NCBI GenBank assembly: GCA_023267555.1
Contig: JAHFMZ010000003.1
Span: 1 to 48,786, forward strand
Source of the DNA: a bacterium
Lineage (GTDB): Bacteria > Patescibacteriota > Minisyncoccia > Phycocordibacterales > UBA5272
Reading direction: 5' to 3'
DNA: 48,786 bases
Below the pieces are notes generated by a model. The model was not told the DNA's origin. It made no database searches and was given only the letters and a program-made list of their open reading frames with translations. The position numbers were made by a program, and so were the translations under genes. Below are positions 277-36,575 of this stretch, piece after piece (position 1 is the stretch's first letter; the number at the start of each line of letters is the position of its first letter).

Positions 277-339
277 TATTTTACTAAACTTAACCATTCT
301 AGCAAAATACTAGAATCCGTCCACAAAATTGTTTACGGG

Positions 340-413
340 TGTCGGCGGGTGGGAACGATCCACCGACCTTGGGCTTATGAGTCCCACGCTCTAACCAACT
401 GAGCTACGCCGAC
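340..413 (-). tRNA. tRNA-Met(CAT), elongator or Ile2
   Basis: GTCGGCG/CGCCGAC acceptor stem, CTCATAA anticodon loop; atypical T-loop ATCGTTC. Confidence 0.88.
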
Positions 414-415
414 AT

Positions 416-26942: not shown

Positions 26943-27023
26943 GCCGGAGTGGCGGAATGGTAGACGCGCACGACTCAAAATCGTGTATCGCAAGGTGTGT
27001 GGGTTCAACTCCCACCTCCGGCA
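26943..27023 (+). tRNA. tRNA-Leu(CAA)
   Basis: GCCGGAG/CTCCGGC, CTCAAAA loop, long variable arm. Confidence 0.95.
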
Positions 27024-27127
27024 CATATAGAAAAAATACCAACTGCTTGGCTTACGGGGAGTTGAATAGGGGTCGCGAAACTAATTATGACGAACGCAGT
27101 GAGGAATTAGTTTTGTGACCGAGTCTC
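27024..27127 (+). mobile_element. 3'-type target-antisense mini-element, partly decayed
   Basis: CCA-ACTGCT-TGG hairpin, GGGAGTTGAA (antisense to T-arm), TAGGGGTCGCGAAACT...AGTTTTGTGACC, then GAGTC. Confidence 0.65.
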
Positions 27128-27202
27128 TCTTACTTCGTATCTTACTTTATTATCTACACCCAGTATTTCTCTCGTGATATACTTACCCCATAAACATACT
27201 TT

Positions 27203-30329: not shown

Positions 30330-30407
30330 TTATTTTTTAACTTCCAATTTATGTGGGTTGTGGTTTGGACAGAGTTTGTCGCTACATCTCTCGGGTATGG
30401 TTTTGGT
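30330..30407 (-). pseudogene. Displaced alternative 3' end of topA (25 codons plus stop)
   Basis: Translates TKTIPERCSDKLCPNHNPHKLEVKK* versus the live end TKTIPERCSDKGCPMHNPHKLNKEEK*. Confidence 0.85.
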
Positions 30408-30623
30408 CACAGATAATTTATCGCCGTCGCTCGAAATTTCCGCGACCCCGGCTCACTTGTTTTTCTTGCTAGAAAAACATAGTTCCGCCAGACAAAGACC
30501 ACCGCAGGCAACGCAGGATGCCTGCTTACCCGAGATATTAATTATTTCTCTTCTTTGTTTAGTTTATGAGGGTTATGCATCGGGCAACCTTTATCTGAAC
30601 ATCTCTCGGGTATGGTCTTTGTC
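30405..30623 (-). mobile_element. 3'-type target-antisense mini-element in the topA 3' end
   Basis: ATCTCGGGTA-[AGCAGGCAT CCTGCG TTGCCTGCGG]-TGGTCTTTGTC antisense to topA 30601-30623; GGGGTCGCGG...CTGTGACC hairpin abuts the displaced end. Confidence 0.75.
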
Positions 30624-32755
30624 CCTTCCATCATCAACTCTCCACATTCTGTCCCGTCATCTTTTTTATAAGTACAACGATTACCAGTTGGGCGAGTTTT
30701 GATTATATGTTTACAATCTGGATAATTTGAACAAGCGTAAAATATTCCAAAGCGTCCTTTGCGCTCCTCCATATATCCGTCTTTACATTTATTACAAGAG
30801 ACACCAGTTGAATTTGCTTTACGCATCTCTTCATCCTGTTCAATATATTTACATTTTGGATAATTCGAACAGGCGATAAATTTACCATATTTTCCTTCAC
30901 GTTCCATTAATTCTCCTTTTTCGCATTTCGGACATTTTTTGCCAAGTAATTTTGGACCTTCCATAACATCACCGTCCATTTTTCTTGCACCCATACATTC
31001 TGGATAACGAATACAAGAATAAAATTTTCCATTTTTTGCAAGCTTGATGACCATCTTGGCGTTACAAAGTGGGCACTTCATTCCTTCTGGAGCATCACCC
31101 ATACTTGTAGCTTTCTCTAAATTTTCTTTTGATTTTACATCTTTAAGAAATGGTCCGTAAAAATCTTTCAATGTTTTTAAATAGGTAGCCTTACCTTCAG
31201 CGATTAAGTCTAGCTTGTCTTCCATATCTGCTGTGAATGTATCACTTATGTATGACGCAAAATGATCTTCCAAAAATGAAATCACAACTTCACCAGTATC
31301 TGTTGGGTGAAGTGCTTTGTTTATTTTTTCAACATAACCGCGCGCTTCGATGGTCGTCATAATAGACGCATAGGTTGATGGACGGCCAATACCTCTTTTC
31401 TCAAGCTCTTTGATTAAACCAGCTTCACTATATCTGTTTGGTGGCTCAGTTTGTTTTTCAATTGATTGTAATGTTTTTAAATTAAGCGTGTCATTTGGTT
31501 TTAGCTCTGGCAAAATTACATCATCACTTTTTGCATCTTCTGATGCCAAAAGCCATCCTGGAGAAAGAAGTATAGAACCTGTCACAGAAAAATCAGGAAT
31601 ACTTTTTGATGGAATATTTGCAGTAACTTTGCTGCGTTTTAATTTTGCATCTTTCATTTGACTGGATACGGCGCGTTCCCAGATGAGTGAATAAAGACGT
31701 TTTTCATCGTCATTTGTACCACCACTTCTTTGCGTAGCGTGAGTTGGACGTATTGCTTCGTGAGCCTCCTGAGCATTTTTTGATTTGGTTTTATATTGGC
31801 GAATTTCTAGATTTTCTTTGCCAAAGTTTTTTTCAATTACAGAAGCAATTTCTGCAACAGCAGTAGCTGACAATGTTGTACTATCTGTACGCATATAAGT
31901 GATGAGACCTTTTTCATATAATTTTTGGGCGATACCCATAGTGCGAGACGGAGAATATCCAAGGCGTGAACTTGCCGCTTGTTGCAAAGTAGAAGTTGTG
32001 AATGGAGCTTTTGGTGAACGAGAAACTTCTGTGCTTTCTATTGAGACGACTTCCCAATTTGAATTTTTACCTTCACGCACAATACGTTCGGCTTCCGCTT
32101 TGTCATTTGGTTGTTTTTCACATTCAAGAATGAGAGTGTAAGTTTTACTTTCTTTCATTCGGCCGACAGTTGAAAATTCGCCAGCAATTACATAATAGGT
32201 GACAGGAATAAATGCACGTATTTCGCGTTCGCGTTCCATAATGATGCGAAGTGCAGGGGATTGCACGCGGCCAGCAGAAAGTCCGTAGCGAACTTTTTTC
32301 CAAATAATTCCTGACAAATCATATCCTACAAGACGATCAAGTACGCGACGAGCCTCCTGAGCTTCTTTTAAATTAATATCAATTTCACGTGGATGTTGTA
32401 TGGCTTCCAAAATAGCTTCTTTGGTGATTTCGTGGAAAGCTACTCGTTTCGCAGTTTTAAGTCCACAAGCTTCTTGTATATGCCAAGCTATCGCTTCTCC
32501 TTCACGGTCGGGGTCGGTTGCGAGTAATATTTCATTTGATTTTTTGGCAAGAGATTTTATTTCAGAAATAACTTTTTCTTTACCAGCACTTACTTCGTAA
32601 TGCGGAATAAAACCACCTTCTATGTCGACAGCTTTTTTATTGCTCTTTGGCAAATCACGAATATGACCAACAGACGCACGCACTTCATATGCGCCGTCTA
32701 AATATTTTGCAATAGTTTTTGCCTTGGAAGGACTTTCTACAATTAATAGTTTCAT
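30542..32755 (-). CDS. topA: DNA topoisomerase I
   Basis: LIVESPSKAKTI, DPDREGE, SAGRVQS, ITYMRTD, C-terminal Zn ribbons. Confidence 0.98.
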   Translation of the reverse strand: MKLLIVESPSKAKTIAKYLDGAYEVRASVGHIRDLPKSNKKAVDIEGGFIPHYEVSAGKEKVISEIKSLAKKSNEILLATDPDREGEAIAWHIQEACGLKTAKRVAFHEITKEAILEAIQHPREIDINLKEAQEARRVLDRLVGYDLSGIIWKKVRYGLSAGRVQSPALRIIMEREREIRAFIPVTYYVIAGEFSTVGRMKESKTYTLILECEKQPNDKAEAERIVREGKNSNWEVVSIESTEVSRSPKAPFTTSTLQQAASSRLGYSPSRTMGIAQKLYEKGLITYMRTDSTTLSATAVAEIASVIEKNFGKENLEIRQYKTKSKNAQEAHEAIRPTHATQRSGGTNDDEKRLYSLIWERAVSSQMKDAKLKRSKVTANIPSKSIPDFSVTGSILLSPGWLLASEDAKSDDVILPELKPNDTLNLKTLQSIEKQTEPPNRYSEAGLIKELEKRGIGRPSTYASIMTTIEARGYVEKINKALHPTDTGEVVISFLEDHFASYISDTFTADMEDKLDLIAEGKATYLKTLKDFYGPFLKDVKSKENLEKATSMGDAPEGMKCPLCNAKMVIKLAKNGKFYSCIRYPECMGARKMDGDVMEGPKLLGKKCPKCEKGELMEREGKYGKFIACSNYPKCKYIEQDEEMRKANSTGVSCNKCKDGYMEERKGRFGIFYACSNYPDCKHIIKTRPTGNRCTYKKDDGTECGELMMEGTKTIPERCSDKGCPMHNPHKLNKEEK

Positions 32756-34944: not shown

Positions 34945-35093
34945 TTTGTGCCCAGGGCGGGACTCGGTCACAAAATCAGCTCCTTCGTCGCAGATGATTT
35001 TCCGACCCGTATTCGAGTCCCGATAAAAGCCAAGCAGTTGGCTTTCTCCCTGTCACAAAATGAAAAAGCTGGCAAAAGCCAGTTTTCATTTTG
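34945..35093 (-). mobile_element. 3'-type target-antisense mini-element after tRNA-Leu(TAA)
   Basis: 22-bp direct repeat 34945-34966 / 35090-35111; split antisense TGTGACAGGG-[AGAAAGCCA ACTGCT TGGCTTTTAT]-CGGGACTCGAA; GGGTCGGAAAATCA...TGATTTTGTGACC. Confidence 0.8.
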
Positions 35094-35176
35094 TGCCCAG
35101 GGCGGGACTCGAACCCGCACGCTGTAACCAGCCAAGGATTTTAAGTCCTTTATGTCTACCATTCCATCACCCGGGC
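35094..35176 (-). tRNA. tRNA-Leu(TAA)
   Basis: GCCCGGG/CCTGGGC, CTTAAAA loop, long variable arm. Confidence 0.95.
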
Positions 35177-36340: not shown

Positions 36341-36422
36341 GCCCGGGTGGCGAAATTGGTAGACGCACTTGCCTTAGGAGCAAGCGCCGCAAGGCATGAA
36401 GGTTCAAGTCCTTTCCCGGGCA
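36341..36422 (+). tRNA. tRNA-Leu(TAG)
   Basis: GCCCGGG/CCCGGGC, CTTAGGA loop, long variable arm. Confidence 0.95.
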
Positions 36423-36575
36423 CAACATAAAAAATGAGACCGCGTAAGCTGTCCATTTTTTAGTTGTGCCCGAGAAGCAAGTGATCTGCACCACTTGCGT
36501 AAGGACTTGAATAGGGGTCGCGAAGTCTTCTATTTTTGATTACAAAAATAGACTTTGTGACCAAGTCCTTTCCCG
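36423..36575 (+). mobile_element. 3'-type target-antisense mini-element after tRNA-Leu(TAG)
   Basis: GTTGTGCCCGAGA-[AGCAAGTG ATCTGCAC CACTTGCGT]-AAGGACTTGAA, TAGGGGTCGCGAAGTC...GACTTTGTGACC, direct repeat AAGTCCTTTCCCG. Confidence 0.8.

Follow-up and report, generated by a model that had tools for sequence, protein, structure and literature searches.

A duplicated tRNA tail encloses a structured, gene-less insert

What is the short stretch of DNA that lies behind the tRNA-Leu(TAA) gene of this bacterium, bracketed by two copies of the end of that gene? The locus belongs to the window, i.e. the whole stretch of 48,786 nucleotides analysed here, which is contig C19 of a CPR-type genome (513,749 bp in 24 contigs, ~36% G+C, rated 93% complete). 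The initial annotation had described an exact 22-bp duplication of the tRNA tail around a 123-bp insert, resembling an attL/attR pair without an enclosed gene, and the sequence bears this out. A repeat search finds TTTGTGCCCAGGGCGGGACTCG at 34945-34966 and again at 35090-35111 with 100% identity, 145 nt apart from start to start and with 123 bp between them. By our own arithmetic, the chance expectation for such a 22-nt pair in 700 bp is ~6e-8. The right-hand copy consists of positions 56-74 of tRNA-Leu(TAA) plus 3 trailer bases, and the element proper runs from 34945 to ~35092. The 123 bp contain no credible ORF; the mechanically called ORFs, of 64-69 aa, overlap each other.

The three hairpins and the split antisense copy of the tail that had been noticed in the insert are all present at tRNA-Leu(TAA) (Table 1). 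The order of the module is as follows: tRNA, palindromic terminator, A' (antisense of the acceptor strand), hp1 with its CTGC loop, T' (antisense of T-loop and T-stem), a conserved joint, hp2, GTGACC, and a direct copy of tRNA positions 56-74. The cassette brings a bidirectional terminator, since the terminator-like hairpin at 35065-35086 scores as a terminator on both strands. The antisense tail is split by the CTGC hairpin exactly at the acceptor/T-stem boundary, hp1 standing at the 65/66 junction. In two relatives, L028 and L030, the A' site, imperfect in the window, reads GTTGTGCCCAGGG.

Table 1. Parts of the tRNA-Leu(TAA) cassette and further copies in the window
Feature	Position	Strand	Evidence
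tRNA-Leu(TAA) gene, intact	35093..35176	-	ARAGORN; Rfam tRNA 57 bits
Direct repeat copy 1: tRNA 56-74 (19 nt) and 3 trailer bases, within the working tRNA	35090..35111	-	repeat search
Palindrome round the terminator-like hairpin (stem-loop 35065-35086); arms reach into the tRNA trailer	35054..35095	.	inverted pair, 13-nt arms, 100%
A': antisense of acceptor 3' strand and trailer, TTTTGTGACAGGG, imperfect at tRNA-Leu(TAA)	35048..35060	-	read from sequence
hp1: 8-bp hairpin, CTGC loop at 35034-35037	35026..35045	-	covariation over 90 distinct copies
T': CGGGACTCGAA, antisense of tRNA 54-64 (T-loop and T-stem 3' strand), 11/11	35012..35022	-	perfect inverted match
Joint TAC and hp2 block GGGTCGG...TTTTGTGACC, G:U-rich helix	34967..35011	-	43-nt block, 7 identical copies in genome
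Direct repeat copy 2: tRNA tail (56-74 plus 3), displaced or duplicated	34945..34966	-	repeat search
Leu-CAA copy, behind tRNA-Leu(CAA) 26943-27024; T' GGGGAGTTGAA at 27056-27066; without terminator, without A'; direct repeat decayed	27033..27129	+	R1 76.9 bits
Leu-TAG copy, behind tRNA-Leu(TAG) 36341-36423: terminator, A' 36463-36472, hp1, T' 36502-36512, hp2, 14-nt direct repeat 36562-36575	36424..36575	+	R1 89.1 bits
Orphan copy, same architecture, no upstream tRNA; begins right past the stop of ORF 30542-32755(-)	30386..30536	-	motif match

Related cassettes stand behind most tRNA genes of the genome

ARAGORN predicts 40 tRNA genes in this genome. When up to 260 nt downstream of each were scanned for antisense sequence, 24 of the 40 proved to carry a module, their own positions 54-64 being matched at 9/11 or better, and the remaining 16 reached at most 8/11. 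The module is not leucine-specific: it is spread over the tRNA isotypes, including Tyr, His, Gly, Pro, Thr, Ser, Arg, Lys, Val, Asp, Ile, Asn, Glu and four Leu. At the six tRNA-specific bases of T', the mean match is 5.54/6 to the own tRNA vs 3.03/6 to other tRNAs. A covariance model of the family, R1, gives 20 matches in this genome. The orphan copy of the window, which has hp1 (CTGC loop), a further hairpin and hp2, and whose two arms form a 19-nt tRNA-tail-like sequence, was missed by R1 at E<=0.01.

The copies share their scaffold and differ in their arms. The CTGC hairpin said to be common to the Leu-TAA and Leu-CAA copies is indeed so, its core CCAACTGCTTGG being found exactly at 35030-35041(-) and 27039-27050(+), and the antisense sequence differs to suit each tRNA as had been reported, the T' of either copy matching its own. 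Across the genome, 7 copies have the same 43-nt hp2 block to the letter, each with different T'/A' arms. One hp1 stem is common to three of these 7 copies and to one copy with a different hp2. The hp1 and hp2 types are mixed among the copies, a pattern not expected from simple copy-and-paste. The direct repeat extends over 19 nt at most, starting at C56 and stopping one base past the discriminator, in 6 copies of the genome. Moreover, trailer and terminator travel with the cassette: a frame AACATAAAAA...TTTTTAGTTGTGCCC is common to the Leu-TAG copy of the window and to the Leu-TAA copies of three relatives.

At the beginning of the window, a 78-nt tRNA-Met call at 337-414 (-) displays an unusual T-loop, GGATCGTTCCCACC. 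It belongs to a Met-Met-Asp cluster that has a module behind its last tRNA only, the tRNA-Asp at the contig end.

The antisense arms follow the resident tRNA

Arms and direct repeat were compared with the tRNA in 87 copies. The mean identity to the tRNA is 10.5/11 for T' and 6.8/9 for A', and 14.4/19 for the whole direct repeat, with 7.8/9 in its T part and 5.7/9 in its acceptor part. Where tRNA and repeat disagree, T' sides with the tRNA in 70 cases, with the repeat in 2 and with neither in 3, while A' sides with the tRNA in 98 cases and with the repeat in 3; this tally is biased toward the tRNA because the arms were located by their tRNA match, a filter to which few copies were lost. The direct repeat decays, but the antisense arms keep their match to the tRNA they accompany.

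Point mutation cannot place identical scaffolds beside wholly different arms; either the arms would have to be rewritten from a template or the scaffold spread by gene conversion. Behind tRNA-Ser(GGA) and tRNA-Ser(GCT) stands nearly the same cassette, whose T' fits Ser-GGA and mismatches Ser-GCT at the single base by which they differ, yet the two sense tail copies at Ser-GCT both have the Ser-GCT type. This is the picture expected if the cassette had recently moved from one tRNA to a similar one and its arm had not yet been corrected. The initial annotation had gone further and proposed a common scaffold that is retargeted by its guide. The scaffold and the tRNA-matched antisense are confirmed throughout the genome; the role as guide is not, since copying or correction against the adjacent tRNA tail could explain the matching equally well.

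Covariation supports two hairpins with different constraints

An alignment of 17 short copies gives a fold made of hp1, a T':repeat helix and hp2, with compensatory change in 22 of 31 pairs. The R1 collection was then used, which holds 93 copies (90 distinct) from 69 loci. Among the 90 distinct copies, 95.3% of the cells are paired, a share that drops to 76.3% in shuffles and to 37-45% with a slid partner, and 579 cells are changed on both sides vs 184 in shuffles. For hp1, 98.3% of the cells are paired and 8 of 9 pairs show compensatory change. Because both strands of the T':repeat helix derive from the tRNA, this helix covaries by construction; hp1 and hp2 are the independent covariation evidence.

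The three palindromic parts differ in their wobble pairs. Read on the tRNA-sense strand, the structure has 189 G:U vs 33 A:C, mostly in hp2, one pair of which takes the G:U form in 84 of 89 copies. If the two G:U-dominant pairs are set aside, 64 G:U remain vs 33 A:C, and the excess is almost wholly in hp2. No strand bias appears in hp1 (4 G:U, 6 A:C), nor in the terminator/A' palindrome (1002 Watson-Crick, 9 G:U and 9 A:C in 41 copies). Consequently hp2 looks constrained in one strand only, that of the tRNA polarity, for which RNA is the simplest explanation, whereas hp1 and the terminator/A' palindrome behave as symmetric DNA palindromes. In many copies the long palindrome is near-perfect over 25-32 bp and takes in locus-specific trailer sequence.

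The predicted fold of tRNA plus element has -113.4 kcal/mol (z = -9.1); in it the true tail pairs with A'/T', and the 5' strand of the tRNA with the repeat. For the element alone, the predicted fold has z = -6.7.

Occurrence and turnover in related bacteria

All 24 genomes of the same genus that were searched have R1 matches, with 1-19 copies each, the single copy of G017 being that of a genome rated 100% complete. Of 16 other families of the order, 9 have matches. A degenerate 18-nt pattern was also scanned over one genome per species. R1 confirms 44 of the 80 loci listed, all of them with CPR-type labels (Saccharibacteria, Nomurabacteria, Paceibacterota, Parcubacteria, Gracilibacteria) or unlabelled. 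Of the other 36 listed loci, with other phylum labels, R1 confirms none, which fits the chance rate, and the 8 pattern matches in viral contigs are likewise without R1 confirmation. The scaffold (hp1 loop, joint, hp2 and GTGACC) is foreign to the tRNA, is kept across genera and always lies at the same two insertion points. In metagenome contigs, the 43-nt hp2 block was found exactly in 3 ordinary copies, behind tRNA-Asp, tRNA-Ser(TGA) and tRNA-Leu(TAA).

At tRNA-Leu(TAA) of the relatives, the element is absent from about 9 of 26 readable loci (L026, L029, L031, L032, L036, L039, L041, L046 and L049). Eight of these empty loci have the terminator alone or unrelated sequence, and L032 has an unrelated hairpin-rich tract; at L026 the downstream gene is the same as in the window. 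The occupied loci carry diverse variants, with two units in tandem at L045 and L028. Many occupied loci have a second terminator past the repeat, presumably the original one. Being present or absent at the same tRNA between species, and at times in tandem, the cassette behaves as a small non-autonomous insertion.

The case for mobility is drawn from this comparison between species, because neither an excised allele, a circle nor a fresh insertion with alignable flanks was seen in the metagenome scan or in the contigs of four sequencing runs, which break inside repeats. A 27-nt stretch of flank plus repeat had no match in the metagenome scan, and no clean joint skipping the 145 bp was listed among those same broken contigs. 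One record bridges 34966 to 35125 with 15 other letters, for which the simplest explanation is a tRNA from a relative that aligned to the repeat.

Candidate enzymes and serine-recombinase islands

Whole-genome family searches of this 93% complete genome returned no match for Y1 (PF01797), IS110, TnpB, resolvase, rve or DDE_Tnp_1, and Pfam identified no mobile-element enzyme among the first 150 of the 500 mechanically called ORFs. Several known kinds of element can be set aside on these grounds. A MITE is disfavoured by the lack of any DDE_Tnp_1, rve, Y1, IS110 or TnpB match and by repeats that are the 19-nt tRNA tail; a REP/REPIN with its RAYT, by the absence of Y1 (HUH) transposase matches; and an IS110 bridge RNA or a TnpB omega RNA, as neither enzyme was found in the genome. 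The genome does contain one reverse transcriptase. Homologues occur in just 5 of the 53 genomes of the genus, which rules it out as the driver. A retroelement with the tRNA as primer or template is excluded for the same reason, and by arms that copy genomic trailer bases and not CCA. The gene itself (G000 contig C6:12434-13579, L022 and L053) stands alone, encodes 382 aa and lies between RNase R-like and SMC genes, with ~400 bp of non-coding DNA upstream.

The only recombinase of this genome is a housekeeping-type Xer, a tyrosine recombinase with the Xer-type domain pair, which adjoins rpsO on another contig than the window. In integrons, by comparison, attC sites with R''/R' boxes go with an IntI integrase. 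An Xer-like gene is found in 51 of the 53 genomes of the genus. A single tyrosine recombinase is encoded in 45 of the 53, two or three in six, and none was detected in the other two. One of the eight such extra matches, in these six genomes, is a 277-aa tyrosine recombinase gene of G057 (L133, G057:C6) beside tRNA-Glu(TTC) and tRNA-Val(GAC), where an ordinary module stands behind Val.

Serine recombinases are also common in the genus. Resolvase-domain genes, mostly open frames of 440-600 aa, occur in 41 of 53 genomes, with up to 6 per genome. At 11 of 20 serine-recombinase loci the tRNA is convergent with the recombinase gene, and at all 11 junctions the recombinase frame remains open across the 260 nt that follow the tRNA, its end lying within ~110 nt of the tRNA 3' end. 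In G052 such a gene lies beside tRNA-Leu(TAA). Examples of recombinases at tRNA ends are L289, L293, L294 (tRNA-Ala), L300/L319 (tRNA-Asn), L301, L302, L313 (tRNA-Gln) and L316 (tRNA-Leu-TAA). Within 1.5 kb on either side of the catalytic domain, R1 finds nothing at E<=1 in the 20 recombinase loci.

Three islands could be read at both ends, in G009 (L309, tRNA-Ala, ~5 kb), G015 (L313, tRNA-Gln, ~6.6 kb) and G016 (L319, tRNA-Asn, ~12 kb). Each has the order tRNA, recombinase and cargo, complete module with the T'/A' of that tRNA, and repeat, the direct repeat after the module matching at 19/19, 17/19 and 18/19 positions, respectively. A third copy of the tRNA end, of 5-7 nt, stands just before the module palindrome and is preceded by a conserved island end. 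We read these three islands as having inserted, through a different junction, at the very 3' terminus of a tRNA with a module already in place. T-loop crossovers are not supported at the far ends, where the last 5-7 nt alone align cleanly. At L308, L310 and L312, with no tRNA nearby, the conserved motifs TGTCACTTTTGTCACTTTTT and GGTTCTAA... lie ~100-200 nt upstream of the module palindrome and are probably right ends of serine-recombinase islands.

Module number and recombinase number are uncorrelated in 25 genomes (Spearman 0.10, p = 0.62). The present genome has 24 modules and no serine recombinase, and five recombinase-free genomes that were scanned have 5-18 modules each, four of the five being just 70-81% complete. 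The initial annotation had named a remnant of an integrase-bearing island as the finding that would overturn its view. For a tyrosine-integrase island this is not supported, given the single Xer-like tyrosine recombinase found nearly throughout the genus, and no full-size version of the insert was seen. Islands with serine recombinases (LSR islands) do occupy tRNA 3' ends in relatives, but the three read at both ends are nested beside an intact module and share 5-7 nt with the tRNA end vs the 19 nt of the cassette repeat; on these three islands, descent of the insert from them appears doubtful.

Nature of the cassette

We consider it somewhat better than an even chance that the Leu-TAA feature belongs to a family of structured, non-autonomous insertion cassettes, 100-150 nt long and without genes, whose place is the 3' end of tRNA genes in CPR/Patescibacteria. 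Such a cassette would enter by recombination at T-loop position 55/56. The tRNA would retain a working tail and gain a terminator, and the second tail copy downstream would become the decaying direct repeat. The cassette would be moved by a host or visiting enzyme. Its arms would most likely be kept complementary by palindrome-templated correction together with selection on the tRNA; alternatively, pairing with the target may require the arms. In hp2 the constraint would act on a single strand of tRNA sense, most simply an RNA from terminator read-through. If this is true, most tRNA genes of a large and poorly known bacterial radiation bear a small hitch-hiking cassette, which would account for many unexplained "tRNA fragments" in CPR annotation, and mobile DNA of these genomes, serine-recombinase islands included, would land mainly in the tRNA tail. 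The question then posed is how identical scaffolds acquire target-matched arms with no dedicated enzyme in the genome.

Other readings share part of this evidence. The antisense arms could be working guides, the cassette being a protein-less programmable homing unit, of RNA or ss DNA, that pairs with the stretch from T-loop to 3' end, relies on a host enzyme for insertion and takes new arm sequences from each new target. We regard this as distinctly unlikely; were it true, the cassette would be a new minimal targeting system and a guide-bearing mobile element of an undescribed kind, confined to CPR bacteria. Somewhat less unlikely, though still improbable, is an RNA useful to the host in cis or in trans: the read-through trailer RNA would pair with its own tRNA tail, or arms and repeat would mimic an acceptor/T-arm minihelix, and so steer processing, quality control or degradation. 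The strand-specific, RNA-like G:U excess with its one nearly invariant hp2 wobble pair would suit such an RNA, as would the recurrence of a tandem G.A variant of T', the status of T' as the best-kept segment, which follows the tRNA and not the repeat, the position of hp1 exactly at the acceptor/T-stem junction, and the z-scores of the predicted folds. However, copy number ranges from 1 to 19 within one genus, and a complete genome manages with one copy; orthologous sites are often empty; the cassette stands behind its own terminator without a promoter-like site; and modules persist 5-12 kb away from their tRNA.

The preferred reading of an independent insertion cassette must also be weighed against two ways of deriving the module from other processes. 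One makes it a derivative or passenger of the LSR islands, either the att-end module that remained after an internal deletion or a cis-mobilisable mini-element on which their recombinases act in trans. The abundance of resolvase-domain genes, their convergence on tRNAs, the order seen in L309, L313 and L319 with a repeat matching the tRNA, and the recombinase gene adjoining tRNA-Leu(TAA) in G052 speak for it. We nevertheless find it rather doubtful: this genome has no resolvase match yet 24 modules, the two numbers do not correlate across genomes, R1 is empty at the recombinase loci, and the short copy of the tRNA end before a complete module points to an island that settled beside a pre-existing module by a different junction. 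In the other, nothing moves at all. Replication template switching at the terminator palindrome would produce the inverted and direct tail copies at each tRNA locus separately, with gene conversion spreading the hairpins that the copies share. This agrees with the long palindromes that include locus-specific trailer and with arms that follow the local tRNA, but a scaffold foreign to the tRNA, conserved across genera and always placed at the same two points makes it very improbable, and tandem stacking and the shared trailer-terminator units favour a ready-made unit.

Relation to known systems and variant architectures

Mobile elements that bear guides are known from IS200/IS605 ends, REP/RAYT, IS110 bridge RNA and the EBS of group II introns. 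Like them, the cassette has a conserved scaffold with a short segment complementary to the flanking target. In contrast, Y1, IS110 and TnpB enzymes were not found in this genome, the reverse transcriptase occurs in only 5 of the 53 genomes of the genus, and the arms of the cassette, of 10-20 nt, pair with a sequence that is also duplicated. CIMEs and MITE-like elements are short, gene-less and multi-copy, and are presumed to be moved in trans. These properties are echoed by the cassette, which is also short, gene-less and present in many copies with mobilisation presumed in trans, whereas no parent element sharing its ends came to light and there are no conventional terminal inverted repeats. 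Moreover, unlike the target duplication of a MITE, which is short and variable, that of the cassette is the fixed 19-nt tRNA tail, and its arms vary to match the neighbouring tRNA.

Genomic islands and prophages in tRNA and tmRNA genes come close in another way, and a T-loop sublocation for some of them was reportedly described by Williams in 2002. As in the cassette, a tail repeat brackets the insert and begins in the T-loop, the tRNA is left intact, copies stack in tandem, and sites are found occupied or empty. Unlike these islands, the cassette has 123 bp without an integrase, and it adds an antisense tail copy and conserved hairpins. The LSR islands of the genus also target tRNA 3' ends and sit beside modules, whereas they share 5-7 nt with the tRNA end, have their own recombinase and lack the R1 scaffold near its catalytic domain.

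A further parallel is RtT of the E. coli tyrT operon (Rfam RF00391), whose repeat units end in the 3' end of tRNA-Tyr. Both RtT and the cassette form repeated units after a tRNA gene, each ending in a tail copy; RtT is transcribed with its tRNA, as the cassette would be on terminator read-through. On the other hand, the cassette has no match to it in Rfam even at E<=10, and RtT is known from one locus while the cassette stands behind most tRNAs and has an antisense tail. When Rfam was searched at gathering thresholds and at E<=10, tRNA alone passed, the next best family scoring 19.9 bits vs a gathering score of 84. One preprint mentions rttR (10.1101/2024.07.17.603846), and the current version of PMC10542128 has no RtT passage. 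A full-text literature search returned no paper describing such tRNA-tail cassettes. The combination of a restored tRNA, a supplied terminator and a kept mirror of the host tail is absent from Rfam and from the searched literature.

Some variants were met in the course of these comparisons. In five relatives (L024, L025, L027, L034 and L051), the direct repeat at tRNA-Leu(TAA) is split by the same ~26-nt insert, TGCCAAGCTTCGAATCTGCTGATTCG, between its T-stem and acceptor parts, and L024, L027 and L034 also display a second architecture, in which the antisense tail is contiguous, with no hp1 between A' and T'. Finally, the related metagenome contig L285 and positions 1-170 of the window carry orthologous tRNA-Asp modules. 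Their flanks are ~90% alike by eye and their terminator and hp1 stems differ by fully compensated changes, while the hp2 of L285 is exactly the Leu-TAA hp2 block of the window.
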